A program made the position numbers and the translations under genes. The notes beneath the pieces were generated by a model. The model was not told where the DNA came from. It worked only from the letters and a program-made list of their open reading frames with translations, and ran no database searches. Positions 1-57,573 of a stretch of 64,000 nucleotides of DNA are shown here, one piece after another. Location: positions 31,224 through 95,223 of the forward strand of contig JAFGGC010000003.1 of the NCBI GenBank assembly GCA_016930715.1, read 5' to 3'. Positions within the stretch are counted from its first letter, which is position 1. Every line of letters begins with the position of its first letter. The DNA is from Endomicrobiales bacterium (GTDB lineage Bacteria; Elusimicrobiota; Endomicrobiia; Endomicrobiales; JAFGGC01).

Positions 1-3000
1 ATAAGGACAGTTTTAATTCTTCTCGATTCTCGCACTGCTTCCCGCGCCACGCCCTGAACTGCCGGGCCGAGCGCGACTTCGCCGAAGGCGGCCGCCCGGG
101 CCTGTTTTTCGGCCGCTTCATCCTTTATCTTTTTCAAGGCGTCCGTTATCTCGGCGTACCTGTTGGCCTGAAGCATCTCTGCGGCAAGCTCGGGGTACTT
201 TTTAGCTATATGGCGCACAAGCCCTTCGACATCTTTGGCGTATATCACGAGTTCGCTTAAGAGCTCCGCTTTTGTCATCCAGTCGCCGTCGGCGTCTTTC
301 CTGTCGACACCCTCGCCGAAATCGATGAACTGCACGCGGCCGGACGGCGTCACTAAATACTGTATGGTCCGCCTGACGCGCAAGCCCTGCGACTCTATCC
401 TCGATACGGCCTCCATCAGGTCGTCAATGGTGCCGGTATTGATGCGTTCTTTCGCGACCACCGGAAAATCGCCCGGGACGATGTCCGAGACAAGGCTTGG
501 CTCGCCCGATGCGGAACTTTCCGTGCCGTAGAACTTCGGCCCTATGCCGAGCGCGTCCGCGGTCATAGCGCCTCTTGCGTCCAAAACCCTGTATTTATCC
601 GCGTCAAACATATAGACTTTGACCGCGACAGGCGTGCCGTCGTCAAACCAGCCGAGTTTCGCGAAAGCCGTCGTGCCGTGGCCCGCCTTGCTCACTATGA
701 AAACGTCCTCATCCGGGAAGTTCACCCTGACGCTTGGGCATTGGTCAATCCTGTTGGGGAGCCTGCCTACGGGTCTTTGTTCCCTGAAACCGGATGTAGT
801 AGAGTATCCTTCCGGTAGGTCCTTTATCGATATATCCCCGGAATGCAGGAACCTATGGGCTTTCCCTTTTAATTTATCAACATAGATACCGATGGGATAC
901 AGGTTCTTTGAGAACCCGAGCTCGGGGACGGCCTTTGCTTTGGCGATGAGCTTCGCGGCTGAATCCGGTACAATCCTGCCTGCAACCAATCCCACCTCCG
1001 GGGTGGGTTTGGTTTTTAGCCCAAGGATGTAATCATAAAACGCCTTTCTGTTCAGCCAGCCCCAGTATTTGCCGTTCTTATTAATATTAATGTTCGATTC
1101 ACGTATATAGTCATGATATACATAACTCCATTTTTCGCCTGTCGGGTCGATTTCAAACGTCCTTCCGGCGGCGTATTCCGTCCCGTACCACAACATCGCC
1201 TCCTGGACGCTTTGCCTGGCTTTTAAATCTGTTTCTTTTCTGGCCAGGTCATGCCCGGCATCTATCGCGTCCACGTCACGAAAACCGCAGGACTTCAACA
1301 TATCCCTTATACCGTAGAGGAAATACTCCCGATTTGTCGAATATTCGTCTATAATGACTAGTTTTCCGTCTTTTCTTATTCCGAGGGACTCAATGTATCG
1401 CGCGAAGGCTTGCGGATTTTTTCTGGCAAGCTCAACGCAGTCCGGACCGCGACGACTGAAATCAACAAGGTAACACCTTCCGGCCCCGCCAAGCCCGAGC
1501 TCGTGTTTTAATCCGCAATAAAGCATATCCGCGCCCCTGCCCAGGAAGACGAACTGCGTGTCTGCGCCGGGATACGAATCCCTGATGGACTTTGAGATTT
1601 TTTCCACCTCTTTAAAAGTGGACCGAAGCCCCGGAAAATAGTTGTAGCTGTCGGTCGACAAATATTCGACACCGCAGTACCGGTTAAAAGCCTTTTTGGA
1701 GGCAAGCATCTCATCTACCTTTGCCTCATCGTTCCAGAACTCTTCGTCGTTTAAGAACGGGTCGTCAAGTATGAAGCCGAACTTTTCGGGATCCTTCTTC
1801 ACCGCTTCGGCTATTTCGCCTGAGCCAAGCAGTGATAGCCGCTCGAATATTTTGGTTTCTTTTGTTGTCTGTTCCGCGGCCCCCGCCGCACGGGCCACGG
1901 CCTGGGCGGCCCTGCCGATGACCGGGCCTAAAAATACGTCTTTTATTACGGCATTTATTATCGGAAAATCGTACTCGTGCGAATAAAGAGGCGACACCGC
2001 AAGGCCTATCGCCGGAATATTCACGCCTCTTGACTCAAAGAGTTCCCTGATACCGCCGATTTCTTCGCGCAGTTCCTTCTCGTTCGGCCTGCGAACGGCG
2101 GCATTAAGCGTGGATCTCGTGTTGAAATAGTCAGCGTCAAAAGACAGGAGGCATCCTTCCGAAAGGTCGGCCCACGGAAGGTCGGCCGGGTCATCCACTA
2201 TCTTCGCGTAACCGCCAAGGTATCGTGTCAATACTTCCGGCGCGTGCTTGGGCCTTACCCAGTACACCGGCCCGACCAGCCCTTCCTTTATGAGGAACGA
2301 CACCCAGTTGCCCTCCCTGATACCCCTTTGCGGAGGTATGTCTTCGGGCTTGTGCGGATTGTCGTTGTGATAATCGAACACGACAAGCGGCATCCCTTTC
2401 TTTATCTTCCCTTCTTCGACAAGGCGCTTTGTGAAATGGTAGAACCCGTCGTGGGTCCTGTGAGAGTCGAACAATACCGGCGCGTTTTTCGTTACAGGGA
2501 AAGTCATTTGAGACAACGGGATTTTTAAACCAAACGCCGTTTCCGGAGTGAGCAGCTCAAAAACAGGCTTCTCTGATACCGTAAGAACAACACCTAGCTT
2601 AGTCGAAACAAGGAACACCTGCTCCGCACCTTTCGGACGGACCACACGCAAATCGCCGTTGTATTCTCTTGCAAGCGCCATCTGCTCGGGTTTATATATG
2701 TTACCGTTGCGCTGTTCGAAACGCCAGAAGTGACCGCGAATGTCCGCCTTTCCTGTCTCTCCGCTCAAAAATACCATGAACCACAGGAAGCCGATGTCCA
2801 CGTTCCTGGCTATCAGCGCGTCATCGCTGGCCCTTTCTTTCGCGTCAGTGATCGCGCCGTACGGATACTTGCGCAGCATGCCGTTGATATAGCCGATTTT
2901 CTGTTCCATTTCCATCCGCGGATCCGGCAGCGTCAGCGGGGCGCCGGATATAATGTTGTACACCGCGTGGAAGTACATCCCGGCGAACGCGCCTACGGTG

Positions 3001-6000
3001 ACGGATGCCGACATCACGCTCAGCACCAATACCATCGAGACCGGAAAGGCAAAGAAACCGAAGCTGACCATCGAGGCGGCCGCGGTTAACGCAACCGGGA
3101 ATATGTAATTGAAAAACGTTATTCCAAGTACACCAAAAATACGCCTTTTGCGGCCACCTTCGTAGGCGCCGGGGCCCCTGTAGTGGTCCCTGAAGAATTT
3201 CACCGGATTGAGCGCCGCCTTGAACTCTATCTCGGCCACCATTCTCGCTATCCACCAGTCCGATTTCCCATCGGCCTTCCACTGCTCCACAAGCGGCCGG
3301 TTCACGGGAAGGACGAGGCCGTAATCGTTCTTCCCGTTGAGCGCGCGCTCCATCTCAACAAGCTCAGCTACCGATTCGCTGAATCCCGGCAGGTTTTCGT
3401 CCAGCGGCGCGAGCAGACCCCTGACAGTCACAAGGTCGCCGCCGTTTTCACGAAGATTATTTATCATCGCGACCCATCTTTCCGGTTCCGCTTCGTCCCT
3501 GAAGATTTCGCTCAAGTTGGAAAACAGCTTGCTGAACGCTTCTTTGACGTTCCGTTTCTGATCTTCGATGAGCCGCTCATCCGACACCTGCGTGACCGCC
3601 GGAACAGCGTGTTTTATTTCGTCCAGGACTATATATTCAGGCTCTGCTTCGAAAACCTCTGAAGGCGGGACGTCCACCATCGTGAGTTTTCCGTTCAAGT
3701 ACGAAGCGTAACCCAGGGCGTTCTCACGGTCGTTCGGAAAACCCGCGAAAATAACGTGATGGTCGAAAACTCCCGGAAGAGGCTCGAAATGCCAGCTCGG
3801 CGGGTTCTGCGGGTCCTCCCAGACCTGCGGGCTGTGGCTCACCACGTAATGTGCTGATGGTTCCTTGACCGTCGCGCGGAATTTCGCTACATCCATTGCG
3901 CCGTAATACGTGTGGCCGGCTTTTTTATCGCCGGGGCGGTCCGCCCTCGTCCATAGCATTTGTTTCTTGATATCGAACGATAATTTGTCCCGCGACGAAC
4001 CGGCAAAAATCGTGTTTTCTATCCTTGCAAGATTGGGGGCGCTTGCTGCCGGCCCCGCGTGATTTGCTATCAACCCCTGCCTGGGCACGTCTGTTTCTGC
4101 ACCCGCCATTGCGTGGCCGACGGCGAGGACCGGCGACAAGACAAGGAACTCGGCATAGAGCTTCAGGTAATCCTCTCCCCCGTAGAAAACAAGGCGCTCT
4201 TTCCAGAGCCTGCACTGGTGAATTCCGGATTTGTCTATGACGTCCTCTATAGTGTCGTGATTGCCGAGCAGGTAATAGACGTTTTCCGGCGCCTGTAGAA
4301 TCAACTCGTAAATGTACTGCATCATCCTCAGCGAGGAATTCATATCCGCCAGGTACCCGTGTTCCTCCCTGTGGACCGCGTCACCGAGTATCACGAGGAC
4401 GGCTTTCCCTGTCTTTATCTTCCCGAGGTTGCCGTTGTGTCCCAGTATCGCTTCGAGATTATCAAGGCGCGCGTGGAGGTCGCCGACGAGTATCACTTCC
4501 CTGTCTTTCGGAATGCCGCGCAAGTAAAGAACTGCGCCGCGCTGGTATATACCCGAAGCGCCGTTGACTTTCCCCGCGCCTTCGGCCCTGCGGCGCTCAA
4601 GGGCCTCCACTACCCGTTTCAGCTGCCCGATGGCCTGGTCGCGCCTGAGCAGACCTTTTTCGGACTCGTCGATGTCGCCGGCGCCACGGGTTTGCGGCGC
4701 GGCCGTTTCGTCCATCGTCAGCTGGGCGGACGTGCCCCAGAAAATGGTGTTCCACCACTCGTGGAAGTCCCTGCTAAACGCTATCCCTGCAATTAAAAGA
4801 ACTGAGGCCTGGAATATCCCGGCAGCTACGCCGTTCCAACCGTTGAAAAGAAGGCAGCCAATCACAAAACCAATGAGAATCGGCCCCCACATCAGGGTGG
4901 ACATTACCGCTATGCCGGCGGCCCTGATAATCTTTCCCTTGGGATTCGAATGACTTAAATAGAAGCTTACCGGCGTCAGCGCGCTCCAGAGCTCTTCCTC
5001 GGCTATGTATCTTGCCACCTCTCTTGCGGCTTTTTTTGTGGCTTGCCTTTCTATCCTTGCTTCGTCTTCTTCCCCTCTTATCCTCGCCCATCCCATTTCC
5101 CTTTCTTTTATCATCTCGAACGCGGCCCGGAAATATTTCAGGTTTTTGTCCATAACAAGGGCGCCGGACGGCCGGACAGGTTCGGGCAGGCCGCCGTTCC
5201 CGGAGGTCTTGAACGTTTCAAGGTCCGGCCTTTGCGTGGATATCGACAGGCCGCCTTTTGAATGGCGCAGGGCGAACCTGCCGTTATCCAGTATTTCATA
5301 CGTCCTTGTTTCCGAGGCCTGCCCGATCCTGTTCTCTATGACTTTTACCTCGCCGCGGTAAAACTCGAGCCATTTGAGGAAAGGTTTTTCCTTGCCTTCG
5401 TCGTCGGAAATGACGCTCAGAGAATCCAGATTGTTCTCATTCACGAGAAAATCCCTGATGTCTGAGGCCCTGATGCTGCCCTCCGACTTCTCCGCGCCTT
5501 CCGGATACGACGTGGCAATGACGGCGCGCCAGTCGGAACCCCTGACGTCTCTAAAAAATTCGGCAAATAGCTTCCGCTTAAGATCTTCGTTCTTCTCGCC
5601 CCATTTTTCCCTTACCTTCTCCTGGCTCTGAATGAGGAAATGGACCATCTTCCGTTCGCCGGTCTTTATGTTCTTGGCGGCGACGGCAACGCAGGTGGAA
5701 AGGCCAGCCGTCAGGACCTCGGTTTCATCAAAAGTTGAATGGGCAGTGTGCTCCGTGACTTTAATTATCCTTGATATGAATTTCTCTGAAGCTCTTCGCA
5801 GGATCAATTGATGGTCTTTGGCTATTACATTGTAAATGGCGTGCGTGTATATGTTGGCGCTGCGCGCGGCGTTCACCGCAAGTCCCTGCGCAAAACCGAA
5901 CGTCGGCACAAAAATAATCGCATAAGCCGCCCACATGAAAGCCGTGATTGCGGCCACGCCTATGCGCCTGCGCCACTTGCCGCCGGTATAGGCGCCGGGG

Positions 6001-9000
6001 CCTTCGTAGTGGCGCCTGTAGAACCTTACCGGGCTTAAGGAGTCAACGAACTCCAGCTTGGCCACTTCTTTTGCTATCCACCAGTCGGATTTGCCCTCGG
6101 ACTTCCACTGCTCCACAAGCGGCCGGTTCACGGGAAGGACGAGCGAACCTCCCGAAGCGTTGAGCCGGGCGGCAAGCTTCTTTACCGGACCGAGATATGA
6201 TGTGTCTTTTATGGGAATGATGGCATTAAACAGTTCGGGGTGTTCCTTCCTGACGTGCCTTAAAGCGGCGTCTTTGACCTCATCGGAAGCGTAAAGCAGG
6301 AGCTTCGCCAGCTCTCGCCCTTTAAGAGACGTGCTGTCCATCCTTTTCTCTAATATCCCGCCGCCGAAATCCAGGACCCTTATGCTGCCTCGGAGTGTCA
6401 CGTAATACTGAAAATCCCCCCCCACGCTCCTGCCGGACCTTTCGATCCTTGAGAACGTTTCGAGCAGGTCCTTGACGGTGTTCAGGCCTATGTGCGGATT
6501 GACCCTGTTCACAGGCCCCTCGCTGAACTGGGCTGCGAAATCCCCGGGGATTATACCCATCACGACGCTCACGCCGAAATAACCATCCCTGCAAATCCCG
6601 TGGAATTTTTGGCCGATGCCGAGGGCCTCGGCAACCGCCGCGCTTCTTGCATCTTCCAGGATCATCTTATCGGCATCGGACCGAGAACCGAGGAAAACGG
6701 ATTTCACCGCAACCGGCGTGCCGTCATCGAGCCACCCGAGCCTCGTAACCCCGTAAGAACCGTTTGATACCTTGCTCATCAAATACACGGTATTACCTGG
6801 GAAATTGACGTGCACGTCCCAGTCTCTTTCTTCCGGAGAAACCGGCAGGCGGCCCATCTCTTTTTCGGGGCCAAGCGCGCCGGTATCGGCATCAAGGTCC
6901 GAATCATCAAGATCGGCGGTCGCGATGAACATCGGTTCCATATCGGGCAGGCCCAGTCTCTCCCTGTACTGCCTGTTGACGACCCGCAACTTCAACAAAT
7001 TAGTGATATATATATCGTCGCTTGGAGGGGTTTTTTTGGCTTTACTCAATATTTTCGGGGCAGGGACTGTAACTGTCGTTTCACGCGCGGTTTTCAGGGC
7101 AAGCCCGGTCAGTTCGGGCAAATGTCTGGTTTCGGGGTTTTCGTGGTATGCTTTGTAGTCTTCAACGGTGGCGGAGGCTTGCCCGCCGGGGAGGCGGGGG
7201 CCTAAGGCGGTCAGTTCGGCGAGCTCTTCTTCGGCGAACCTTTCAAGCAGGGTTACTTTCGCGCCGCCGGGGCCGTGTATGGAATCGAATATGGCGCCCT
7301 GCCTGTCGGACTCGGCTATAAGCGCTTCAAGGAAACCCTGGTGTATGTAGAGCACCGTCTTGCCGGACTCGGTTGTCAGGAAGGCCGGTATACCGCAGAC
7401 CTGCCCTTGCGGTGTTTTCGCGAACACCTCATTGCTTTTTGAGACGCGTATCTCAACGTCTTTGCTGATAACTGATGGCTGATGGCTGAAAGCTTCCTGA
7501 AGCTTTTGCCTTTCAACTACGAACTCCGAACCACGAACTATGAACTGTTTTTCCGCTCCCGTGAACTTCCTGACTATTGCGGCCGAAATCCCGGAAAGCT
7601 TCACCACCTGCTGCCAGCCGGTGACGTCATCTACTATCCTGGCCGCCACCAGGAATTCCTCAAACCCGACCGAGAGGGCGGAGAACCCGGCATCCGGGTT
7701 CGATATCTTGATGACCATCGTCGGTTCGCCTGAGAAATCCTTTGAAACCTCAAGACCCTTGATCATCCTTCCATTGCCTTCGACGAAATATATCCTCTTC
7801 CCTTCCTGAGCGATTCCTTTCGCGTTCAACATCGCCTTGTGAAGGTAACCGCCGTACCTGTCATGTTCAGCGTGGTTCGGCGCAACGTTGTCCTCGCCCA
7901 TGGAGTTTATCTGGTTCACGCTTCCTCCGAGCGCCGTCGACCGGGCAGCTTTAATGAAAAGCACCAGCGCGCGCATAAAGGTTTTATAATCCTTGTAGTT
8001 AACCACCAGCTTCGCCGTTATTTTATCCAGGTGACCGAGCAAGTCTTCCGAACCGAAATACTCGCGGAACAACTCGCCGTCTACCTTTGATATTTCTCCG
8101 GATGCAACGAGACCCTTAAGAGCTGAAGCGCATTTCACCCGCTGTTCCTCATCGTTTGACCCCTGCACCCACGCACCCAGGTACCTGCCGAGGCGCCTCT
8201 CAAAATTTTCTTTGGCGTTCTTTTCGAGCATTGCCCGGAATCTCGCGACGGATACCTTGCCGCTCCCGGCGGCTTTCCCAAATTCAGAGACCAGACTGTC
8301 GAAATACCCGTACGGAACGGCCGAGCAGAACCCTTTTTCGCCGCTGCCCGCGCTGTCAAGCGCCCAGAATGCCAGGTTCCATTGCATCAGCGTCTTGATC
8401 CTTTCGAGGTCCACGTAGCCGCCGTCCGCATAGTATTCCCTGAACTCCTCATCGCTATCGAGGATGCGGCTGAAGGCCGTAAGACTGGCGGCTCCAGGCA
8501 TTATCGCGCCGACCCTCGCATGGGTCTTTATGAGCCAGTAAATATCGCCGGTCTCTTTCGCGCTCAGTCCCTGCGCCGAACCGAATTTTTCCATAATTCC
8601 AAGCTCACGCATCAGCTGCCCGCTTGAAATGTCGTGCATCTTGCTTGTCGCGCCGAAGTATTCTTCGCATTTTCCTATGTCGTGGAATAGGCAGATGAAA
8701 GCCCATGTGCTGAACGCTTTTTCCCCGCTCATGGCGCCGGCCATTGTGGAACGCAGCCCGGATAAAATATCTCCGGACAACTTGCCGTCGGTATCCCCTC
8801 TGAACAGCCCGGCAAGCCTAAGCTGCTTCTCCGGCTCCGGGATGTATTTCAGGTTGTGGCTCTGGATGAACGACGCGTAGACCGCTATAATATGGTTTAC
8901 AAGAATATCCAGTGTTTTCTCGTCTTTTTGACTGAATTCTTTGCCGGGGTAGACATGTTTAATGACGGAAGCGTAGTATTCACGGAGCGTACCGGAAAGC

Positions 9001-12000
9001 CTGCTTTTAAGCACGGCTTCGATCTCAGTCACGTCGGAAGGCAGTTCGTTCAGGCTTTTTACCTCGAACAGCCTCGCCACATTCTCGGCGTCCGTATACT
9101 CCATTAGTGCGTCAAGCGGCACAACGCTTTCCTTGGCCCTAAGTTCGGGACCGGGCTCCTCCGGCCCTGTCTGTCTTTCTTTCGTCAGCGCCTCGCCGGG
9201 CTCCGACTCGAGGTTGACATCATAATGCTTCGAAACGTTCAGCATATACGCCCCGGCAAGTGCGCCGGCGGGCGCAGCAACGGCTGCCAGCACGACGGCC
9301 AGGCCGCCTATCAGCGGAAACATGGAAAGCGTGACAAAAGCGCCGGCGATGGCTCCGGCCATTGCGCCGAGCTTGGTCTCGGACACTATCACGCCAAGCC
9401 CCGCCCGGCGCCAGAGCGTTTCGCCGCCCCTGTGCCGCGCCATGAACCTCTTTGACATTTCCTCAGCGCGCTTCTTTGAGAACACGCTTGCCGCCGCTAT
9501 CCACATCAACTCGACGGCTTCGGCCCGCGGCGCCACGAAAAGCTCGGCGTATCGCTCGATGACCTTCGTCTCGTCCGACACGTCAAGCTCGCGGCCCTTC
9601 GAGCGCTCGAGTTCTACAAGCTTTTGCTTGATCTTTTCCTGCTGTTCCCTCGAAAGGTTCCGCCACCTTGCCGCCGCCTTGTTTTGAGTGTCGATCGTGG
9701 TTAGCGCCTGTCCGGACTGCGCACCGGCGGCCTCCGACCCCTTGCGCGTGACGTCCCTCAAACTGAACTCGGCTGTGCGCGTGTCGTACGCGAAAACGGC
9801 CACGGCGCTTCTGCCTTGCGGATGCTTTATCCTGAAAGTGAACAACTGTTCCTGCCCCGCACCGGCCGTTATTGTAAGCAACTCTATACTGGGATTCTTT
9901 GAGCCTTCCACGGACGCGTTCCACTTTCTGGCGAACTCTTCAAGGTTCTTTGACAAAGTTTCAACATCCGCGTTCCCGCCCGCTGCATCCTTTAGTTTCT
10001 TCTGCGCGTATTCTTTGACGCTCAAACCCTCTTCTTCCGCGGCAATGCCTATTTCGACCCTGACTTCCGCCGAGACCAGCGACCTTACCCTCGCTTCCGG
10101 GCCGTATTCCGAAAGCAGCTTGAGCGCGAACGAGGCCTTAGCCAATGCGGCCTGCAGCTTCGCCGTTTCCGCGTAAAGCGCGTCCGAGACCTTCGTATCT
10201 TCGGTTATATTGGGGGTTACCACGACGCACGAAATCCTGCGGGCCTTTAATAGCTTCATCAGCCCGTCCGAATGGAAACCTCCCGTTACGACCACTATCA
10301 GCCCGGAGGCCTTTATCAGCGAGGAAAGCTCGGATTCCGGAACGGCGACTGCTCCCTTTCCCGCCGCTGCCCCCCGCGCCGGCACGTCCATGTTTTTCAG
10401 GAAACACGCGTTCCTTCTGATGTTCGCTTTGTAAAAATCGTCCGCGAGCTTGATGTCTCCGGCAAGCCCGTCCAGGACGGCGCCGTCGGCGTATTTCGGC
10501 CACAGGCTCCTGAATGTCGCGTAGTTCCCGCTGAAATAACGGTAGTCCTCGGCCGTAAGCTTGTTACCGAGGAAATCTCCGAGATAGGCGAGGAAATCCG
10601 ACAGGAACGACACTTCGAACTCAGGCCTTGTCTCCGAAAGGCCGGCGTGCACCGCCGAAATCAGCTTTTTTTCCTCGGCCAGAAGCACGGCAGTGTCCAG
10701 CTTCCTGCTTTTTTCAAGGTAGGCGAAGAATTTCGAAAGGTTGGGGTAGTTCGAGGACAGGTCAATCCTGTACTCCCTGGCCATACCCATCAGGCAGGCA
10801 TAAAGCTCGTCGAGTTTCTTGAAACCATCTGTCCGCTCGATGATGCGGTTGAAGGTCTTGAATGGTATCTTCTCCTTGAGGAGCGCCAAAAGCCCCTGTA
10901 TCTCAAGGCCTATCCGTTTGTAGTTCAGCTTTTCGGAATCTTCGGCCAGTTCAACGTAGAGCCTGATGTTCACGAAGTCGTTTTCATCGATCGGGCACAG
11001 GTTCCCGAAACCGTAGCGGTCGGCCTTGAGCTTTTTGGGGTACTTAAGGAGCATGGCGTAGTATTTCCGCGCCTGGATGCCGTTCTCCCTGTTTCTTGAA
11101 AGCAGGTTCTCGAACCTGATGTTCTTGGAGTTGAAGTATTTTTTCCTGGCTGCGCCCAGGGAATCCCTCATCGAAGCGAGCGCCGCCGCGTAATCGCCGG
11201 ACCTGGCTGTCAGCCGGGACAATCTCCGGAAGTTCTCGCCGTAGACCCGCTCGTCTTCTATGCCGGCAAGAAGGCCCGTTTTTCCGGACGTGACCGAGTA
11301 ATGCTCGGCGCCCGTCAGCCTTCCCTGCCTTACGAGGACGTCAAGCACTTCTTTTTTTGTCTTTTCGTCCGATATGGACGCGAGCCACGACGTGTCCACC
11401 CTGCCCGAAGCGCCCTCAACGTACACTTTCTTCAGCTTGTACTTCTCATCCAGCGATTCCAGTATCTTCGCTATGTTCTTCTGGACTTCGGCGTGGCAGT
11501 GCAGGTCCTGGATGTTCAGCACTACAGGGGAACCGGCGTCCGGGAACACGAAAGAGTCCGTTATCCTGCCTGAGGCGGCGGGAACCACGTAATCCCCTAT
11601 CATTTTTTCCACGCGCTTATCGTCCCTGCGGTTTTCAACAGCCCCCTGAAGCACCTGGGCGAAAACGGAGGTATAGATGAAGCAGGAAACGGTGAGGACC
11701 GCCACCAGTTTCTTGAAATTGAAAACTTGACCGATGAATTTTTCCAGAATGCTTGTCATATCTCCCTTTTTTACCCCCTCACATATCCTCTTCCCAAAGG
11801 GGAGAAAAAAATCGAGGGGTCCTTTAAGCAAATAAAAAACCCAACCGAGATACTTCCTGGTTGGGTAAAGACTTGCCCTTTTAAGGCAAGATATCTCCCA
11901 GGGCAGATTGCTCTTGGACAGCAATACCACGTAGATTATCATAAACACGATTATCAAAAAGAATCCCCTGCCCGGCGGGGCGTTCGACTGGTGTGTGTAC

Positions 12001-12335
12001 TGGTCGGGCGTCCAGAGACCGCCGAAAGCAAGGAGATAATTTGCCTGGTATTTCAATGTGTTATTGAACACGTTCAGGTTGGGTATACCCACGAGAAGCC
12101 CTTCCTGGCTTCTCGCGTCGTTCTTTTGCTTTATGAAGGGTGAAAGCGGTATGTGCTCCTTGACGGTGCCGGCGAGGGCCCCGAAAGGGGAGAGGACCGA
12201 TGCAACAACACCCGCCAAACCGGCGTTGACGCGCGGACGCTGTTTTCCGTCGCAAACCGTTTCTGAAAACCGTGCGAAATTCACGCTGTTCGCGCACAAA
12301 ACCAGTAAAAAGGATAGAAGTAAAAGCTTCCTCAT
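1..12335 (-). CDS. Giant multidomain, multi-TM protein. The 3' end lies beyond position 1, with at least 4,111 codons visible. Alternative start at 11759.
   Basis: In this minus-strand frame (forward triplets starting at multiples of 3), I found no TTA/CTA/TCA wherever I checked codon by codon: 3-41, 4251-4271, 4440-4499, 5670-5699, 6357-6377, 6693-6719, 7440-7502, 8670-8696 and 11760-11972. The rest was read by continuous hand translation. The track lists no competing ORF because the stop is off-window. ATG 12335 is preceded by AAAGGAAAT and gives MRKLLLLSFLLVLCANS. ATG 11759 is preceded by AAGGGAGAT and gives MTSILEKFIGQVFNFKKLVAVLTVSCFIYTSVFAQ. Motifs read: ICLFHDIGK (HD), TPVAVKSVF...VLDFGGG and TPVAVKVYMF...FIDFGEG (kinase-like), VILVGDLHAR...LGDAVHRE...LLGNHD (metallophosphatase). 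Confidence 0.8.
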   Translation of the reverse strand, partial: MRKLLLLSFLLVLCANSVNFARFSETVCDGKQRPRVNAGLAGVVASVLSPFGALAGTVKEHIPLSPFIKQKNDARSQEGLLVGIPNLNVFNNTLKYQANYLLAFGGLWTPDQYTHQSNAPPGRGFFLIIVFMIIYVVLLSKSNLPWEISCLKRASLYPTRKYLGWVFYLLKGPLDFFLPFGKRICEGVKKGDMTSILEKFIGQVFNFKKLVAVLTVSCFIYTSVFAQVLQGAVENRRDDKRVEKMIGDYVVPAASGRITDSFVFPDAGSPVVLNIQDLHCHAEVQKNIAKILESLDEKYKLKKVYVEGASGRVDTSWLASISDEKTKKEVLDVLVRQGRLTGAEHYSVTSGKTGLLAGIEDERVYGENFRRLSRLTARSGDYAAALASMRDSLGAARKKYFNSKNIRFENLLSRNRENGIQARKYYAMLLKYPKKLKADRYGFGNLCPIDENDFVNIRLYVELAEDSEKLNYKRIGLEIQGLLALLKEKIPFKTFNRIIERTDGFKKLDELYACLMGMAREYRIDLSSNYPNLSKFFAYLEKSRKLDTAVLLAEEKKLISAVHAGLSETRPEFEVSFLSDFLAYLGDFLGNKLTAEDYRYFSGNYATFRSLWPKYADGAVLDGLAGDIKLADDFYKANIRRNACFLKNMDVPARGAAAGKGAVAVPESELSSLIKASGLIVVVTGGFHSDGLMKLLKARRISCVVVTPNITEDTKVSDALYAETAKLQAALAKASFALKLLSEYGPEARVRSLVSAEVRVEIGIAAEEEGLSVKEYAQKKLKDAAGGNADVETLSKNLEEFARKWNASVEGSKNPSIELLTITAGAGQEQLFTFRIKHPQGRSAVAVFAYDTRTAEFSLRDVTRKGSEAAGAQSGQALTTIDTQNKAAARWRNLSREQQEKIKQKLVELERSKGRELDVSDETKVIERYAELFVAPRAEAVELMWIAAASVFSKKRAEEMSKRFMARHRGGETLWRRAGLGVIVSETKLGAMAGAIAGAFVTLSMFPLIGGLAVVLAAVAAPAGALAGAYMLNVSKHYDVNLESEPGEALTKERQTGPEEPGPELRAKESVVPLDALMEYTDAENVARLFEVKSLNELPSDVTEIEAVLKSRLSGTLREYYASVIKHVYPGKEFSQKDEKTLDILVNHIIAVYASFIQSHNLKYIPEPEKQLRLAGLFRGDTDGKLSGDILSGLRSTMAGAMSGEKAFSTWAFICLFHDIGKCEEYFGATSKMHDISSGQLMRELGIMEKFGSAQGLSAKETGDIYWLIKTHARVGAIMPGAASLTAFSRILDSDEEFREYYADGGYVDLERIKTLMQWNLAFWALDSAGSGEKGFCSAVPYGYFDSLVSEFGKAAGSGKVSVARFRAMLEKNAKENFERRLGRYLGAWVQGSNDEEQRVKCASALKGLVASGEISKVDGELFREYFGSEDLLGHLDKITAKLVVNYKDYKTFMRALVLFIKAARSTALGGSVNQINSMGEDNVAPNHAEHDRYGGYLHKAMLNAKGIAQEGKRIYFVEGNGRMIKGLEVSKDFSGEPTMVIKISNPDAGFSALSVGFEEFLVAARIVDDVTGWQQVVKLSGISAAIVRKFTGAEKQFIVRGSEFVVERQKLQEAFSHQPSVISKDVEIRVSKSNEVFAKTPQGQVCGIPAFLTTESGKTVLYIHQGFLEALIAESDRQGAIFDSIHGPGGAKVTLLERFAEEELAELTALGPRLPGGQASATVEDYKAYHENPETRHLPELTGLALKTARETTVTVPAPKILSKAKKTPPSDDIYITNLLKLRVVNRQYRERLGLPDMEPMFIATADLDDSDLDADTGALGPEKEMGRLPVSPEERDWDVHVNFPGNTVYLMSKVSNGSYGVTRLGWLDDGTPVAVKSVFLGSRSDADKMILEDARSAAVAEALGIGQKFHGICRDGYFGVSVVMGIIPGDFAAQFSEGPVNRVNPHIGLNTVKDLLETFSRIERSGRSVGGDFQYYVTLRGSIRVLDFGGGILEKRMDSTSLKGRELAKLLLYASDEVKDAALRHVRKEHPELFNAIIPIKDTSYLGPVKKLAARLNASGGSLVLPVNRPLVEQWKSEGKSDWWIAKEVAKLEFVDSLSPVRFYRRHYEGPGAYTGGKWRRRIGVAAITAFMWAAYAIIFVPTFGFAQGLAVNAARSANIYTHAIYNVIAKDHQLILRRASEKFISRIIKVTEHTAHSTFDETEVLTAGLSTCVAVAAKNIKTGERKMVHFLIQSQEKVREKWGEKNEDLKRKLFAEFFRDVRGSDWRAVIATSYPEGAEKSEGSIRASDIRDFLVNENNLDSLSVISDDEGKEKPFLKWLEFYRGEVKVIENRIGQASETRTYEILDNGRFALRHSKGGLSISTQRPDLETFKTSGNGGLPEPVRPSGALVMDKNLKYFRAAFEMIKEREMGWARIRGEEDEARIERQATKKAAREVARYIAEEELWSALTPVSFYLSHSNPKGKIIRAAGIAVMSTLMWGPILIGFVIGCLLFNGWNGVAAGIFQASVLLIAGIAFSRDFHEWWNTIFWGTSAQLTMDETAAPQTRGAGDIDESEKGLLRRDQAIGQLKRVVEALERRRAEGAGKVNGASGIYQRGAVLYLRGIPKDREVILVGDLHARLDNLEAILGHNGNLGKIKTGKAVLVILGDAVHREEHGYLADMNSSLRMMQYIYELILQAPENVYYLLGNHDTIEDVIDKSGIHQCRLWKERLVFYGGEDYLKLYAEFLVLSPVLAVGHAMAGAETDVPRQGLIANHAGPAASAPNLARIENTIFAGSSRDKLSFDIKKQMLWTRADRPGDKKAGHTYYGAMDVAKFRATVKEPSAHYVVSHSPQVWEDPQNPPSWHFEPLPGVFDHHVIFAGFPNDRENALGYASYLNGKLTMVDVPPSEVFEAEPEYIVLDEIKHAVPAVTQVSDERLIEDQKRNVKEAFSKLFSNLSEIFRDEAEPERWVAMINNLRENGGDLVTVRGLLAPLDENLPGFSESVAELVEMERALNGKNDYGLVLPVNRPLVEQWKADGKSDWWIARMVAEIEFKAALNPVKFFRDHYRGPGAYEGGRKRRIFGVLGITFFNYIFPVALTAAASMVSFGFFAFPVSMVLVLSVMSASVTVGAFAGMYFHAVYNIISGAPLTLPDPRMEMEQKIGYINGMLRKYPYGAITDAKERASDDALIARNVDIGFLWFMVFLSGETGKADIRGHFWRFEQRNGNIYKPEQMALAREYNGDLRVVRPKGAEQVFLVSTKLGVVLTVSEKPVFELLTPETAFGLKIPLSQMTFPVTKNAPVLFDSHRTHDGFYHFTKRLVEEGKIKKGMPLVVFDYHNDNPHKPEDIPPQRGIREGNWVSFLIKEGLVGPVYWVRPKHAPEVLTRYLGGYAKIVDDPADLPWADLSEGCLLSFDADYFNTRSTLNAAVRRPNEKELREEIGGIRELFESRGVNIPAIGLAVSPLYSHEYDFPIINAVIKDVFLGPVIGRAAQAVARAAGAAEQTTKETKIFERLSLLGSGEIAEAVKKDPEKFGFILDDPFLNDEEFWNDEAKVDEMLASKKAFNRYCGVEYLSTDSYNYFPGLRSTFKEVEKISKSIRDSYPGADTQFVFLGRGADMLYCGLKHELGLGGAGRCYLVDFSRRGPDCVELARKNPQAFARYIESLGIRKDGKLVIIDEYSTNREYFLYGIRDMLKSCGFRDVDAIDAGHDLARKETDLKARQSVQEAMLWYGTEYAAGRTFEIDPTGEKWSYVYHDYIRESNININKNGKYWGWLNRKAFYDYILGLKTKPTPEVGLVAGRIVPDSAAKLIAKAKAVPELGFSKNLYPIGIYVDKLKGKAHRFLHSGDISIKDLPEGYSTTSGFREQRPVGRLPNRIDQCPSVRVNFPDEDVFIVSKAGHGTTAFAKLGWFDDGTPVAVKVYMFDADKYRVLDARGAMTADALGIGPKFYGTESSASGEPSLVSDIVPGDFPVVAKERINTGTIDDLMEAVSRIESQGLRVRRTIQYLVTPSGRVQFIDFGEGVDRKDADGDWMTKAELLSELVIYAKDVEGLVRHIAKKYPELAAEMLQANRYAEITDALKKIKDEAAEKQARAAAFGEVALGPAVQGVAREAVRESRRIKTVL
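11834..11866 (-). terminator. Intrinsic-terminator-like hairpin lying inside the open giant-ORF frame
   Basis: On the minus strand: ACCCAACC-N12-GGTTGGGT followed by TTTTTTATTT. It sits between the two candidate starts (12335 and 11759). Confidence 0.4.
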
Positions 12336-12519
12336 ATTTCCTTTAAGCTTTCAGGTATTATAAGTATTGGCAATAATACATAGTAATTCAATGGTTTTTT
12401 ATTCTTTTTACGGTCTTTATATTACCCCCCCGGAATGGAAGAAAAATGAAATACTGTTGAAAGAATTGTGAAATCCCTACAAAAGGAGCGTTCAACGCGT
12501 ATTTTTAAGGCTATTCCGG

Positions 12520-15321
12520 TTAAAAAGTCGAGCCAAGGCTGAAGTAGAACACCCAGCCCGGGGAATCCATCCGCTGGGCAAGCTGAAAATTCAGCAGGAG
12601 CGGATACATCTGCAGTATGAACGTGTGAAAGCGAAAGGACGTGCCGTAGCTTCCTCTCCAGTACTCGGGCGTCACGTGGGAAAGCTCGGTCTCGTCGCAC
12701 ACGAAACCGGCGTCGACAAAAAGTGAGCTGTAAAAGGACTTAAAGAAAAAATCCGGGAACATGTACCACATGTGGTAGTTGATGTTGTAAACTATGGGAA
12801 ACCTCAGTTCAAGGTTAGCCACGAATATCCTGTTGCCTATGAAACGCGTGTCGGAAGGCACCCCCCTGACCCTGTCGACGCCTCCGAGGCGGAACGCCCC
12901 CGAATCCTCCCCCTTGCTCGCCCCGCCGAACATTCTAAAACCCACCGCGCTCGCGCCGGAAACCGGGAAATATCTCGCGGCGTCAAGAAAGTAGTTCTGG
13001 TAGTTATAGTCCCCGTAGAGCACCTTTTCCGAAAACTCCGTCGCCGCCGCCAAGCGCGTTCCCTCGAGCGGCTCAAGGTACGGCCCCCTCACCGTGTCGT
13101 GGCGGAATTGCACGCCGGCGATGTTCTCTCGCCTCCTGTAACGGGCGGTTTCCTCAAGGATTATCTCCTCCCTCCTGTCTATCGTGGCAAGCGAAAGGCC
13201 GACGCTCTGGAACCTGTTCAGGGGGTAAAGTACCGCCACGGCCTGCTGGTGGTCCTTCCTTATCCTCGAAAAATCCGGGTCCTCGAAGTCCTCCCTGTAT
13301 TCCTCCCCGGAAAAACCGAAATACACCTGCGTCCTGTAGCGCACGAACCCGTAAACCAAGTCGTAGTCCACGTAGTCAAACTCGCTGGCGTAGCTGACCA
13401 CGGACTGCATTCGGTGGTTGCCGAGCATGTCCGAAACCTGCCAGTACGTGGCAAGAAAAAGCCCGTCCAGGGACGAATAGAAGACCGCCGGAAAGAAAAG
13501 GTCGGTGGACGCCCTGAACCTGTAAGGCGCGTACTCGTCGTCCCTGTCATCCTTTTCCTCCGGTTCCTCCTTCGCGGCAGTCCCGCCTCCGCCTCCCGCC
13601 GGCGCTCCGGCGACGGGCTGAAGATCCTTGACCTCTGCAATATAAAGGTGCCTTTCCCCGTTCCTGAACGAAGAAAACAGAATGTAGCGCCCGTCCGGCG
13701 AGACCACCGGCTGAAAATTGCCTCCGATGACGGAAGTAAGTTTGTCCACCCTGGAACCACCCGCGTCCGTCCTGTAAACGTCGAAAATGCCGTCGGTGTC
13801 CGATATAAAATATACGGTCCCGCCGTCAGGGGCGAAACACGGGTTCCTCTCGTCGCCTTTGAGCGCGGTCAGGAACTTCTTTTCTTTTGTTTCCAGGTCC
13901 AGGAGGCACAGGTCGTACTCCATCCTCCCATCCGGGTTTTCCCGTTCGGCGGCAAACACCAGCGTCTTGCCGTCGGGCGAAACCTCGGCGTCGATTTCAT
14001 CGGTGTCTGTAAACGTCAGCCGCTCGGTCTTCCCGCTCGGAATGTCGTAGTAAAACAAGTCCCTGAAACCGCCCTTGATGCCGGAAAAAAATATCTTGCC
14101 GCCGTCCTTTGAGAAAACCGGCGAGGAGCACGTCTCCGTTTCCTGCCCGTATTTTTCTATTCTGTTTTTTTTGATGTCATAGGCGAAAATACGGTCCTTC
14201 TGCAGTTTCTCCCCGCAGAAGGCGAGATACCTGCCGTCCGGAGAGAACGAAAGACCCCTGCCTTCGGTGTTGACGTTTTCGACCTTCATCGTATCGTCAA
14301 TATCCCACAGGTTTTTCCTTTTTCCGGTTTTAACGTCCTGGACGTATATCTCGTTCATGCCCGTTTCATCGGAAATGTACGCTACGCTCCGGCCGTCTGG
14401 GCTAAAGGCCGCTCCCGTGTTGAACCTCGGCACGCGGCCTTTCCTGGTTATTTTCCTTCCGTACGCGGAAGGCTCCGAAAGCCCCCGGCTCGCGCGTTCG
14501 TATTTTTCTTCCAGGTATTCCCTGAAACGCCTGTCTATGCTGTTGACATCAGCGCCGAGCACGTCCGTCAGGACGGAATTGGCGTCATAGCGCTCCCTGT
14601 AGCTGACAAACAGCATCGGAAGCTTGTCCTCGCCGTATTCCTCGACTATGTACCTGATGAATGCCTCGCTTTCCTTGTAGGCGAGAGTCACCTGGTGCGG
14701 CAGGACGTGGTTGAAGCTGTGGAGCTGCTCCAGCGGCAGCAGTTTTTTCGAAGTCGCGGCGTCCCTGACGTACATCTCGCGCGTCGTCGCGTCAAGGTCT
14801 CCGCCCGAATACTCCGCCAGCCCCTCCATAAGCCAGTTCGGATACAATATGAACTTTATGAGTCTTATCGAACGCCAGAAACCGCTGAAGAGGTACTCGA
14901 ACTGGACCTCGTGCATGTACTCGTGCGCTATTATGTACTCGAACTGCCTCTGCGAGCCGTTGAAGCTGAGCAGGAACCTGTTCTTGAACGCCTCGGTTAC
15001 GCCGCCGGTCCCCTCGCCGATGTCGGTTATGTTGGTCTGCTCGAACTCATTGTGGTTGTTGTACTGGAAGAACGGAAGGCTTTCTTTCGGGGACTCGGGC
15101 ATTACCTTCTTTGCCCTGTCAAACGCCCTTTGAAGGTACTTCTCGGTGTAGGGAAGCAGCGCCTTTCCCTGCCCGCCGTAGTAGTATATGTCGAAATGCC
15201 GGACCGGCCTTATCTTCCACTTGTAATTTTTCGTGATTACTTTATTCTGGGAGAGCGCGTGCGCGGACTGCGGAAGGATTAATATGAAGAATACTGATAA
15301 TAAGCATGCCTTTTTAAACAT
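12520..15321 (-). CDS. Outer-membrane protein: signal peptide + gluzincin-like HExxH peptidase + TolB-like PD40 beta-propeller repeats + C-terminal Omp85/surface-antigen beta-barrel
   Basis: MFKKACLLSVFFILILPQSAHA signal. IAHEYMHEV then NWLMEGLAEY (HExxH...E). Repeated SPDGR/APDG...Y/FxS segments (PDGRSVAYISDETGMNEIYV, SPDGRYLAF, SPDGKTLVF, APDGGTVYFISD, SPDGRYILFSS). C-terminus FRLGGVDRVRGV...NLELRFPI...FYFSLGSTF ends in an aromatic residue, as Omp85-type barrels typically do. Confidence 0.75.
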   Translation of the reverse strand: MFKKACLLSVFFILILPQSAHALSQNKVITKNYKWKIRPVRHFDIYYYGGQGKALLPYTEKYLQRAFDRAKKVMPESPKESLPFFQYNNHNEFEQTNITDIGEGTGGVTEAFKNRFLLSFNGSQRQFEYIIAHEYMHEVQFEYLFSGFWRSIRLIKFILYPNWLMEGLAEYSGGDLDATTREMYVRDAATSKKLLPLEQLHSFNHVLPHQVTLAYKESEAFIRYIVEEYGEDKLPMLFVSYRERYDANSVLTDVLGADVNSIDRRFREYLEEKYERASRGLSEPSAYGRKITRKGRVPRFNTGAAFSPDGRSVAYISDETGMNEIYVQDVKTGKRKNLWDIDDTMKVENVNTEGRGLSFSPDGRYLAFCGEKLQKDRIFAYDIKKNRIEKYGQETETCSSPVFSKDGGKIFFSGIKGGFRDLFYYDIPSGKTERLTFTDTDEIDAEVSPDGKTLVFAAERENPDGRMEYDLCLLDLETKEKKFLTALKGDERNPCFAPDGGTVYFISDTDGIFDVYRTDAGGSRVDKLTSVIGGNFQPVVSPDGRYILFSSFRNGERHLYIAEVKDLQPVAGAPAGGGGGTAAKEEPEEKDDRDDEYAPYRFRASTDLFFPAVFYSSLDGLFLATYWQVSDMLGNHRMQSVVSYASEFDYVDYDLVYGFVRYRTQVYFGFSGEEYREDFEDPDFSRIRKDHQQAVAVLYPLNRFQSVGLSLATIDRREEIILEETARYRRRENIAGVQFRHDTVRGPYLEPLEGTRLAAATEFSEKVLYGDYNYQNYFLDAARYFPVSGASAVGFRMFGGASKGEDSGAFRLGGVDRVRGVPSDTRFIGNRIFVANLELRFPIVYNINYHMWYMFPDFFFKSFYSSLFVDAGFVCDETELSHVTPEYWRGSYGTSFRFHTFILQMYPLLLNFQLAQRMDSPGWVFYFSLGSTF

Positions 15322-15342
15322 AACATATCGGATTTTCCGCCT

Positions 15343-15558
15343 CTAATCCCCGCAGCTCGTGCAGCTTTTGCCCGGCGGACAGGTTGAGCACGAAGCGGAA
15401 GCCTTCGACGGCCCGTCAAGGCCGGGAGAGGCAAAGGACGAGAACAGCCGGACAAGGTCCCGGCCGCCGCAATCGGGGCACTGCGGTTTTTCGCCCGGCA
15501 TGACCAGTATCTCTATCTTTTTATCGCACTTGCTGCAGCGGAACTCGTAAATCGGCAT
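15343..15558 (-). CDS. FmdB-family zinc-ribbon protein
   Basis: MPIYEFRCSKCDKK...CPDCGG: YEFxCxxC...CPxCG signature. 71 aa. Confidence 0.8.
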   Translation of the reverse strand: MPIYEFRCSKCDKKIEILVMPGEKPQCPDCGGRDLVRLFSSFASPGLDGPSKASASCSTCPPGKSCTSCGD

Positions 15559-15567
15559 GTCTCGTTC

Positions 15568-17268: not shown

Positions 17269-17287
17269 AACACGTCTCCTTTGCCTT

Positions 17288-18142
17288 TTATATGTTTAAA
17301 ATATTTTCAACTTTCGCTTTCACTTCCCCTATGACCCAGTCCGGCGTCGATGCACCGGCGGTTATGCCGACTTTCTTGGATTTCCTGAACCACGAAGGCC
17401 TCACTTCTTTTTCCGTTTCTATGTGGTGCGTCCGCGTTTTTCTCGAACATATCTGCGCGAGCCTCCTGGTATTGCCCGAATTCTTACCCCCTACCACCAA
17501 CATTATGTCGACGCACCCTGAAAGGCGCTCGGCCGCGTTCTGCCTGTCCAGAGTCGCGCGGCATATCGTATTGAAAGAGGTCACGTCCTTGCCCGATTTT
17601 TTTAGTTCGCTTATTATCCGGTTGAATTTTTCCGGCGTCTGCGTGGTCTGGCTGACCACGAATATCTTTTTCGGAAGCTTCAGTTTTTTCAGGTCCGCGG
17701 CGCTCTCGACGACCTCTCTCCTGCCCCTGCAATACGAAACAAGACCGATTACCTCCGGATGCGTCTTTTCGCCCACTATGACGATGGCCGAATTTTTTTT
17801 GCCGAGCTCCCTTATGATGTCGTGAGCGCGTTTCACGAACGGGCACGTCGCGTCCACGATCTCAAGGCCGCGGCCCTTGAGTTTTTCCTTTAAATTCTTG
17901 GGCATCCCGTGCGTCCTGATCAAAAGAGTCGATCTTTTGAGCCTTTCGGGGTGCGAGCTTACCTTGATGCCTTTTCTTTCAAGCCTTTCAACTTCCTGCG
18001 GATTGTGTATGATGGGGCCGTACGAAAATATCGTCCCATTTTTTTTAACCGTTTCCTCGGCAAGGCCTATCGCGCGCCTCACTCCGAAACAGAAGCCCGC
18101 GCTTTTGGCTATGTTTATGCCGCTCCGCGCATTCTTAACCAA
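17288..18142 (-). CDS. ispH: 4-hydroxy-3-methylbut-2-enyl diphosphate reductase
   Basis: N-terminal AKSAGFCFGVRRAI, later ATCPFV and STPDW motifs. The start codon is TTG and the gene overlaps the upstream gene by 8 nt. Confidence 0.9.
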   Translation of the reverse strand: MVKNARSGINIAKSAGFCFGVRRAIGLAEETVKKNGTIFSYGPIIHNPQEVERLERKGIKVSSHPERLKRSTLLIRTHGMPKNLKEKLKGRGLEIVDATCPFVKRAHDIIRELGKKNSAIVIVGEKTHPEVIGLVSYCRGRREVVESAADLKKLKLPKKIFVVSQTTQTPEKFNRIISELKKSGKDVTSFNTICRATLDRQNAAERLSGCVDIMLVVGGKNSGNTRRLAQICSRKTRTHHIETEKEVRPSWFRKSKKVGITAGASTPDWVIGEVKAKVENILNI

Positions 18143-54684: not shown

Positions 54685-54732
54685 AGATGGTGGTTATAGT
54701 ATCTCAATGAACTACTATTTGCAGGGGTCCCC

Positions 54733-56512: not shown

Positions 56513-56557
56513 GTGTCAGCTTGCAGGTTGCTTTTATGTTACGGTGTCAGATTTCAC

Positions 56558-57552: not shown

Positions 57553-57573
57553 TGTAGTCAAAAAGGACTACAT

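Follow-up and report, generated by a model that had tools for sequence, protein, structure and literature searches.

What kind of protein is encoded by a reading frame that occupies the first 12.3 kb of a 64-kb stretch of bacterial DNA and leaves it without meeting a stop codon? The stretch in question (contig JAFGGC010000003.1 of assembly GCA_016930715.1, positions 31,224 to 95,223; 64,000 nucleotides, hereafter "the window") had been described, in an earlier note made from its letters alone, as encoding at 250-11560 a giant protein that strings together kinase-like, phosphatase, HD, cysteine-hydrolase-like and arginase-like modules and looks like an array of effectors. What the window carries is the first 12.3 kb, counted from the 5' end, of a chromosomal gene in an uncultured, Endomicrobiales-like bacterium of the Elusimicrobiota, and the gene is genuine. 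With restrained confidence, a little above even, we regard its product as a giant membrane-embedded multi-enzyme protein, the same kind of object as the "Archaeovorins" of Omnitrophota. All our statements about its domains refer to the 4,111 residues that are visible, as the gene's C-terminal portion falls beyond the window.

The frame runs on the minus strand without stops from 12350 to 3 (4,116 codons) and exits the window at its left edge, and because it runs off the end it is missing from open reading frame (ORF) listings. Counted from its first ATG at 12335 (preceded by AAAGGAAAT), the giant ORF (3-12335) comprises at least 4,111 codons; we number residues from this ATG, i.e. residue n begins at 12335-3(n-1), and all coordinates given below for parts of this gene refer to the minus strand. 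A second candidate start, ATG 11757-11759 (M193), has AAGGGAG upstream, a stronger ribosome-binding site than the one at 12335. With a codon-usage model trained on 20 housekeeping genes from the same window, the log-likelihood prefers the giant frame in 41 of 41 successive 300-nt segments, the first two being weaker. The ORF is a real gene with native composition, neither a chance ORF nor an obvious pseudogene, and the plus-strand ORFs 3183-3662, 9688-10176 and 10272-11099, antisense to this strongly coding frame, were taken as spurious. All motifs read in the earlier note were found at or near where it had placed them, but its range of 250-11560 covers only part of the gene, and it mentions neither the hydrophobic blocks and their repeated linkers nor a phosphoribosyltransferase-like module nor the family of related giants. 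Of its seven module assignments, four stand up, two others are weakly supported, and the seventh is unproven. We also considered that the ORF is an artefact or a decaying gene: its frame could stem from a chimeric assembly, could read through several genes, or could belong to a pseudogene without a product. The first 192 codons constitute a separate gene in relatives, which implies at least one fusion or lost stop, and the searched genome and JGI collections hold no second assembly for a cross-check. However, the length of the stop-free frame and its correct codon bias throughout, the catalytic motifs intact in three modules (K1, F and G, described below), and the occurrence, in independent assemblies, of relatives that share its head and modules and are 4,000-8,000 residues long make this explanation very improbable.

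These relatives provide the main clue to the nature of the protein. When residues 3100-4111 served as the query of an exhaustive HMMER search, 135 of 1.84 billion representative proteins matched at E<=1e-3 (56 of them at E<=1e-10). They share three module families (kinase-like, G and H), many are 2,000-8,000 residues long, and all relatives that carry an organism name come from Candidatus Omnitrophota or Endomicrobiales. Eight of the 135 (2,004-7,727 residues) also begin with a conserved "head", which in our protein spans residues 232-745 (about 510 residues; 10101-11642). A word-index search with the head itself returned nine homologs of 348-926 residues (E 7e-121 to 1e-18), and the two of them that carry a name are both from metagenome-assembled genomes (MAGs) of Endomicrobiales. 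Judging by these comparisons, the conserved head defines a protein family across two phyla. The head, the linker and the modules recur in shuffled order in proteins of 2,000-8,000 residues, and the relatives are annotated by a single domain (GH15, L,D-transpeptidase, HAD, helicase-related, GNAT or methyltransferase); e.g. in the giant P0089 the head is followed by HAD, methyltransferase, sugar-transferase and UPF0489 domains. The C-terminal 612 visible residues have no relatives in GTDB species genomes or JGI metagenome contigs. Two related contigs of the Endomicrobiales type contain two head-bearing genes each: L028 (1-1244, minus strand, and 10001-20216, plus strand) and L030 (708-4298 and 10001-12265). 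In L028 a stand-alone head gene is followed, after 8 nt, by a gene whose 2,497-aa product contains Radical_SAM and PGM_PMM domains, and from this arrangement the pair looks like a split version of the giant gene. Phosphoglucomutase/phosphomannomutase and Radical_SAM are among the domains of Omnitrophota giants (10.1101/2023.11.21.568195).

The chromosomal neighborhood yielded one positional ortholog. The window encodes rpsA, ispH, cmk, aroA, tyrA, DAHP synthase, an aminotransferase and pheA, as well as ftsZ, ftsA, ftsQ, ddl, murC, glyS, aspS, feoB and PEPCK. For the rpsA product, identity reaches 63% with the protein of one Endomicrobiales MAG and 46-56% with those of many Elusimicrobiota/Endomicrobium MAGs. 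The closest giant, P0023 (6,545 aa), is encoded on a 268-kb contig (L031) directly downstream of rpsA, and the genes that precede it (DAHP synthase, tyrA, aroA, cmk, ispH, rpsA) are arranged in the same order as in the window, with 56-76% identity between the housekeeping proteins of the two contigs. Only the head (41% identity), the linker/transmembrane module and one kinase-like module of P0023 can be aligned with our protein; P0023 carries PRTase-CE and Peptidase_Mx domains instead of the remainder. From this alignment it appears that the locus is conserved while its modules turn over quickly. Phylum-wide conserved synteny was rejected, as the contig of P0023 is the only one with a giant at rpsA.

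At least nine globular modules follow the head. Between them lie four hydrophobic blocks, poor in charges and 30-57 residues long, which are assigned as transmembrane from hydropathy and charge counts only. Block 1 (residues 990-1037; 9225-9368) comprises 48 residues, one of them charged (K1036). Hydropathy and self-comparison delimit the other three together with a preceding linker: block 2 (2125-2154, 30 residues; with its linker 5856-6158), block 3 (2474-2522, 49 residues; 4761-5018) and block 4 (3066-3122, 57 residues; 2961-3323). The amphipathic linker (LVLPVNRPLVEQWK...) precedes blocks 2 and 4 in two copies that are 71% identical (the second at residues 3007-3065), and it is also present in P0023; the linker of block 3 (2440-2491) is 33% identical to that of block 2. 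A run of 42 nt, CTCGTCCTTCCCGTGAACCGGCCGCTTGTGGAGCAGTGGAAG, is identical in the two copies (6102-6143 and 3276-3317) down to the synonymous sites, which suggests a recent intragenic duplication or gene conversion. A weak SLATT_1 match (E 0.01) at residues 728-833 of P0023 (L031 12176-12427) gave rise to the idea of a SLATT-like effector with two transmembrane helices, which we rejected: none of the four linker/transmembrane pieces of our protein matches SLATT.

The region upstream of the head consists of an N-terminal extension and a leader. The extension (residues 1-192; 11760-12335) contains hydrophobic helices at residues 3-21 and 124-142 according to hydropathy. Its residues 28-168 match (tblastn, 25% identity) a 166-aa ORF located directly upstream of the head gene in L028 (9396-9896) and in another related locus, L029 (1838-2338), and in our gene no in-frame stop precedes ATG 11759. 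On this evidence, the small upstream membrane-protein gene of the relatives is fused in frame to the giant here, and therefore the homologs start at M193: this is where P0001-P0009 and the giant P0023 begin. The segment that follows this alternative start (11652-11759) includes a hydrophobic helix, residues 210-228, which resembles a signal peptide or an anchor, with VFA before and QV after the putative cleavage site. The Ala at position -1 is conserved among the homologs. The helix would thus end in a conserved small-residue/Ala site of the kind found in Sec signal peptides, and therefore the head is likely exported. A terminator-like hairpin followed by a T-run lies inside the ORF at 11817-11842, about 60 nt 5' of ATG 11759, i.e. 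at the junction of the small gene and the head, and may be what is left of an intergenic region that once separated the two.

As to the fold of the head, 17 sequences have the invariant residues D277, H279, Q285, E307-G308, G338, G342, E344 and G358, and a GGFH motif (H688) near the C-terminal end is found in every sequence that reaches this region; in the DNA, QDLHCHAEVQ corresponds to 11481-11510 and VTGGFHSDG to 10263-10289. In an AlphaFold2 model of the head (predicted local distance difference test, pLDDT, 83.3), a helical insert of about 300 residues interrupts a small alpha/beta core. The earlier note had likened this region to the TIKI/ChaN/erythromycin-esterase superfamily. EreC is the best Foldseek match of the model and Pfam ChaN/Tiki (PF04187) is touched by one of the 17 sequences (E 0.042), but none of these matches is significant: EreC scores E 0.15 with probability 0.44, and the list, which also includes BcR135 and HopBA1 (probability 0.41), spans E 0.15-2.7 and template modeling scores (TM-scores) of 0.14-0.17. 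Profiles of the head found nothing relevant among PDB sequences. EreC, BcR135 and HopBA1 share one fold with ChaN and PMT (PMC7979712). An EreA/ChaN/TIKI-type fold is, given the model, the best available lead for the head, though a tentative one. The head shares with this fold the order of motifs, His...Glu...Gly-x-His (DLH, VEG and GGFH), and, in the model, the alpha/beta core with a helical lobe; it differs in that the first motif is D-x-H rather than G-x-x-H, and in the size of the helical insert.

Two modules, K1 (residues 1836-2050; 6186-6830) and K2 (residues 3850-4060; 156-788), are related to protein kinases. They are true internal repeats (residues 1887-2035 versus 3911-4050, 39% identity, E 5e-25). 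K1 retains the full catalytic set of the family (K1878, D1974, Q1976 and D1989) and displays the motifs SNGSYG (6750-6767), TPVAVKSVF (6693-6719), GGDFQYYVT (6396-6422) and IRVLDFGGG (6357-6383). The corresponding motifs of K2 are TPVAVKVYM (609-635), RRTIQYLVT (348-374) and IDFGEG (309-326), with K3906, Q3992 and D4005 retained and T3990 replacing the catalytic Asp. A profile of 34 sequences of this family matches HopBF1 in the PDB (8hoe, E 6.5e-5; 6pwd, E 7.6e-5), in an alignment that spans the helix before the catalytic loop through D-f-Q-y...I-D (D-L-Q-F...N-D in HopBF1). The same profile matches the N-lobe of BMX (E 0.0018), where the Gly-rich loop is aligned and the lysine of VAVK falls on the beta-3 lysine. 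Pfam kinase models match none of the 34 members. The kinase-like fold proposed in the earlier note is supported by the matches to HopBF1 and BMX, and RIO2 is matched weakly (E 0.2). Among 76 family sequences, the beta-3 Lys column contains K in 62 and R in 8, the Q column Q in 69, the metal-binding Asp column D in 71, and the catalytic Asp column D in 66 and E in 5, with Thr in K2 alone. K2 is therefore a probable pseudokinase by its residues, as had been suspected from RRTIQYLVT.

HopBF1 is a type III effector kinase and a minimal protein kinase. With some confidence, based on the profile matches, we consider K1 and K2 to have a HopBF1-like minimal protein-kinase fold; they too are domains of about 200 residues. 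They differ from HopBF1, a small secreted effector, in their location inside a giant membrane protein and in the lack of the catalytic Asp from the second copy. In addition, only the kinase-family C-lobe aligns with HopBF1, and the fold is predicted from the sequence profile.

Module F (residues 2600-2900; 3636-4538; all module boundaries given in hundreds or tens are approximate) contains GDLHAR (4467-4484), GDAVHRE (4365-4385) and GNHD (4254-4265), followed by NHAG, SAPN and VSHSP. The F slice matches Pfam Metallophos (PF00149) with E 1.6e-8 and 35.6 bits, above the cutoff of 21.5, and the alignment covers positions 3-81 of the 191 in the profile; in a search with the whole giant protein this is the sole Pfam match (E 2.3e-7). 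The assignment of a metallophosphoesterase in the earlier note is thus upheld by a family model. As regards the PPP type that was also proposed, the signatures GDxVDRG, GNHE, HGG and SAPNY have only near-matches in F (GDAVHRE, GNHD, NHAG and SAPN, respectively), and F matches no PPP-specific model and no PDB sequence.

Module G (residues 3285-3470; 1926-2483) bears the motifs FDSHRTHD (2448-2471), FDYHNDNPH (2352-2378) and SFDADYF (2124-2144), which provide the predicted metal ligands H3295, D3321, H3323, D3325, D3400 and D3402. A profile of 23 G sequences matches the peptide arginase OspR (8brp) with E 1.7e-15, as well as agmatinases (E 0.004-0.008) and a formimidoylglutamase. In individual Pfam searches, UPF0489 was matched by 18 of the 23 members (best E 1.9e-6) and Arginase by 5; G of our protein alone scores E 0.14-0.19 against PF12640. 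The H, DxHxD and DxD columns align with His12, Asp39, His41, Asp43, Asp165 and Asp167 of OspR, the ligands of its binuclear manganese center. All six ligands are present. The arginase/UPF0489-like relationship noticed earlier is supported, and we assign G with some confidence, from the profile and these residues, as a ureohydrolase-fold module of the UPF0489/peptide-arginase-like type. Glu11 of OspR, which has been proposed to hold the guanidinium group, corresponds to the position before the first His; this is Thr in G and variable across the family, and therefore the substrate of G may not be arginine. Thus G keeps the metal ligands of OspR and UPF0489 ureohydrolases but, unlike OspR, it is embedded in a giant protein and not encoded in a cluster for peptides made on ribosomes and modified after translation (RiPPs).

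Between G and K2 lies module H (residues 3490-3790; 966-1868), composed of a helical N-terminal part and a Rossmann core with the motif KLVIIDEYS. It has 9-10 relatives, and with their alignment AlphaFold2 produced a model with pLDDT 81.9 and a predicted TM-score of 0.83. Foldseek returned no match at E<=0.001, and its list is dominated by type I phosphoribosyltransferases (PRTases), i.e. HGPRT and PyrR chains with probability 0.85-0.96, about 140 aligned columns, E 0.05-0.25 and TM-scores of 0.24-0.45. The conserved strand "kivIVDEfS" falls where the loop that binds phosphoribosyl pyrophosphate (PRPP) would lie. H matches no Pfam family and no PDB sequence; a match of its profile to CheY among PDB sequences was at chance level, limited to the strand "ivivDEfS", and was discarded. 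With moderate confidence, derived from the model, we describe H as PRTase-like: its hydrophobic-x4-D-E-x-S motif occupies the PRPP-loop place of type I PRTases, but it lacks the phosphate-binding T-G-x-T part of their PRPP motif.

The remaining modules are less well characterized. The HD-like module (residues 1100-1400; 8136-9038) displays ICLFHDIGK (8670-8696) and LIKTHARVG (8508-8534), with H1218-D1219 and H1272 as the candidate active-site residues. Five HD-type models converge on the HDIGK motif, in keeping with the HD phosphohydrolase proposed in the earlier note, but all score below their cutoffs (Cas3_HD E 0.02, HD E 0.09, NCBIfam HD-type E 0.018-0.087), and the first His lies at least about 55 residues upstream of H1218-D1219, further than usual. 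Module E (residues 2185-2410; 5106-5783) had been compared to CheD/CNF1-type deamidases because of the motif GLSTCVAVAAKNIKTGERKMVHF (5637-5705). It has no Pfam match at E<=10, and a concatenated HD and E query found no homologs in a word index of 5.8 billion proteins. A post-hoc pairwise BLASTP comparison with Thermotoga maritima CheD (2f9z) gave an ungapped alignment of 54 residues with 23.5 bits and E 5e-4; this single comparison places T2209, C2215 and H2232 opposite a Thr, a Cys and a His of CheD, which we take to be its catalytic residues. As it was chosen with the motif already in view, the comparison offers a lead, and the deamidase assignment stays unproven. Module C (residues 1490-1790; 6966-7868) has no family match in the profile search and a single relative, residues 1640-1792 of the Endomicrobiales giant P0056 (E 5.5e-5 in a set of 144 retrieved proteins); apart from it, matches of HD, C, E and F in this set were noise. 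The region after the head (residues 746-984; 9384-10100), a small beta unit with a charged helix, aligns weakly with P0023 only and has no family match in the profile search. The slice 1780-2950 (1,170 aa) also found nothing in the word index of 5.8 billion proteins; this and the empty HD and E search probably reflect either a saturated prefilter of 8,000 candidates or true orphan modules. The whole giant protein has no match among PDB sequences at E<=10.

What could such a chain do? In the mechanism that we propose, the leader would take the head across the cytoplasmic membrane, and the hydrophobic blocks would hold the chain in the membrane and thereby keep protein- and nucleotide-modifying enzymes at the envelope. 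There the enzymes would find their substrates, either in the envelope itself or in a partner cell (a host or prey), and their repertoire would have been diversified by recombination at the conserved linker/membrane joints. Judged by their nature, the best-assigned modules seem less suited to core metabolism than to macromolecules, be these in an envelope or in a partner cell. We propose action at these sites because the chain combines an effector-type kinase, a protein-type phosphatase and a peptide-arginase-related hydrolase, and because of the rapid turnover of modules and the occurrence of named relatives in lineages suspected to be host-dependent or predatory.

Several observations weigh against the envelope-bound multi-enzyme protein. 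Upstream, all four hydrophobic blocks are flanked by K/R-rich sequence, and downstream by neutral or acidic sequence; these charges fit neither a simple topology with all modules outside nor one with all modules inside. Modules that depend on ATP or PRPP would be useless outside the cell unless they reach another cytoplasm. About 40% of the protein (the post-head region, C, E and the stretch before G) has no assignment, the HD match stays below threshold, SecA_DEAD, a domain frequent in Archaeovorins, has no Pfam match in the protein, none of 26 rpsA loci from Elusimicrobiota and other bacteria carries a relative of the giant, and no secretion system or immunity-like gene is located nearby. 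Two competing explanations stay alive because of the flank pattern and of the need for ATP and PRPP.

The first develops the effector array of the earlier note: a delivered toxin, similar to MARTX, would be exported, whole or as fragments cut from it, and enter a prey or host cell, its bilobed hydrophobic blocks would insert into or translocate across the target membrane, and its modules would modify proteins of the prey or host. It agrees with the resemblance of the kinase-like modules to a type III effector kinase, with the best (if non-significant) fold matches of the head, shared with the effector HopBA1 and the toxin PMT, and with the activity of the closest solved relative of G on peptides; fast divergence of modules at a conserved locus is common for conflict genes, and Omnitrophota, in which relatives occur, have been proposed to be predatory or host-dependent. 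The effector array is plausible and compatible with the relatives. However, the window has no secretion apparatus, processing protease domain or immunity gene, the search for repeats or a translocation region like those of known toxins found none, the linker/transmembrane pieces match neither SLATT nor other pore-forming families, and nothing indicates that the protein is cleaved or released; we judge delivery as a toxin to be unlikely.

Less likely still is a scaffold that faces the cytoplasm and serves its own cell, in which only the head would be outside, as a sensor or an enzyme, and the modules would be tethered by re-entrant hairpins; the kinase, pseudokinase, phosphatase and HD-type hydrolase would then form an internal hub of phospho- or nucleotide signaling. 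The K/R-rich segments before every block, the cytoplasmic cofactors of the ATP- and PRPP-using folds, the presence of a kinase and a phosphatase in one chain, the housekeeping neighborhood and the native codon usage all speak for it. Yet, where two genomes have 56-76% identity in their core proteins, a housekeeping hub would not be expected to have exchanged almost every module, nor to be absent from other relatives, and no receiver, sensor or output domains of known signaling systems were detected.

A more general scheme can be sketched, which we consider tentative and less likely than not: a hitherto unrecognized cassette system of Endomicrobiales and Omnitrophota, in which a small membrane-protein gene is followed by a giant that would always begin with the exported, EreA/TIKI-like head and whose modules (HopBF1-like kinases, peptide-arginase-like hydrolases, PRTase-like domains, phosphatases and others) would be swapped by recombination at conserved linker/transmembrane joints, to serve as a fast-diversifying arsenal for manipulating partner cells. 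If this system is real, effector-type minimal kinases would be common in free-living uncultured bacteria, and if the modules act on proteins of another cell, the protein would be a contact-dependent weapon, or a device for host manipulation, of a new type in uncultured bacteria. Few large genes are as poorly annotated as those for the giant proteins of Omnitrophota and Elusimicrobiota; for this one, four module families can be named for biochemical work: a HopBF1-like kinase, a PPP-like phosphatase, a UPF0489/peptide-arginase-like hydrolase and a PRTase-like module. The 42-nt duplication at a linker/membrane joint points to the mode of module exchange, and the positional ortholog with almost entirely different modules shows how fast such genes turn over. 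In the literature that we searched, the head family, HopBF1-like modules in giants, the 42-nt linker/transmembrane repeat and a module-swapped ortholog appear to be undescribed. We regard the locus as being of moderate to high interest for work on uncultured bacteria and giant genes.

Other parts of the window deserve a brief description. Just upstream of the giant, a gene on the minus strand (12520-15321) encodes a 933-aa protein in which Peptidase_MA_2 and PD40/WD40-like beta-propeller repeats are combined with an Omp85 domain at the C-terminus, and for which an exact look-up found nothing. Three related MAG loci (L002, L009 and L016) have an ORF of 930-1,016 aa after rpsA, a candidate counterpart; the P0023 locus has no such gene. 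The cytidylate kinase (18135-19436, minus strand; 433 aa) is fused to a PlsC-type acyltransferase, and the same fusion is present in L031. The DAHP synthase has an exact match only on a 4.7-kb Logan contig (SRR13394437). Neither Rfam families nor tRNAs were found in the window. Adjoining PEPCK there is an islet of low GC content (54013-58606; 0.35-0.41 versus about 0.54 elsewhere), with Pfam matches to HEPN (weak), DUF4145 and SieB superinfection exclusion (E 4.6e-27). Among its small genes, one for a nucleotidyltransferase is immediately followed by one for a HEPN protein, and the two resemble an MNT/HEPN pair; as a whole, the region resembles a horizontally acquired defense or toxin-antitoxin islet.

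How does the giant compare with known systems? With MARTX toxins it shares the presence of several unrelated enzymatic modules in one giant polypeptide, but it has neither MARTX repeats nor the cysteine protease domain, no type I secretion genes are located nearby, and hydrophobic blocks, absent from MARTX toxins, stand between its modules. Archaeovorins, the giants of Omnitrophota, have been described as rich in transmembrane regions and divergent enzyme domains, with N-terminal regions in which no domains could be identified (10.1101/2023.11.21.568195), uncharacterized huge proteins without functional assignment are enriched in Elusimicrobiota and Omnitrophica (PMC11573180), and predatory or host-dependent lifestyles have been proposed for Omnitrophota (10.1101/2023.11.21.568195; PMC11573180). 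Our gene resembles Archaeovorin-type proteins but departs from the class in several respects, and we do not file it as a member: the host belongs to Elusimicrobiota (Endomicrobiales-like) and not to Omnitrophota, the giants of West-Roberts et al. exceed 30 thousand amino acids (kaa) as compared to the visible 4.1 kaa here and 6.5 kaa in the ortholog, there is no Pfam match to SecA_DEAD, HEAT, glycosyltransferase or TPR in the visible part, and the set of modules is a different one (kinase-like, PPP-like, UPF0489 and PRTase-like). What it has in common with them is a very long single ORF with transmembrane segments among divergent enzyme-like domains, an abundance of such segments (here the leader helices and four blocks, by hydropathy), an N-terminal region that databases leave unannotated, and four modules with direct sequence relatives in Omnitrophota proteins of 4,000-8,000 residues.

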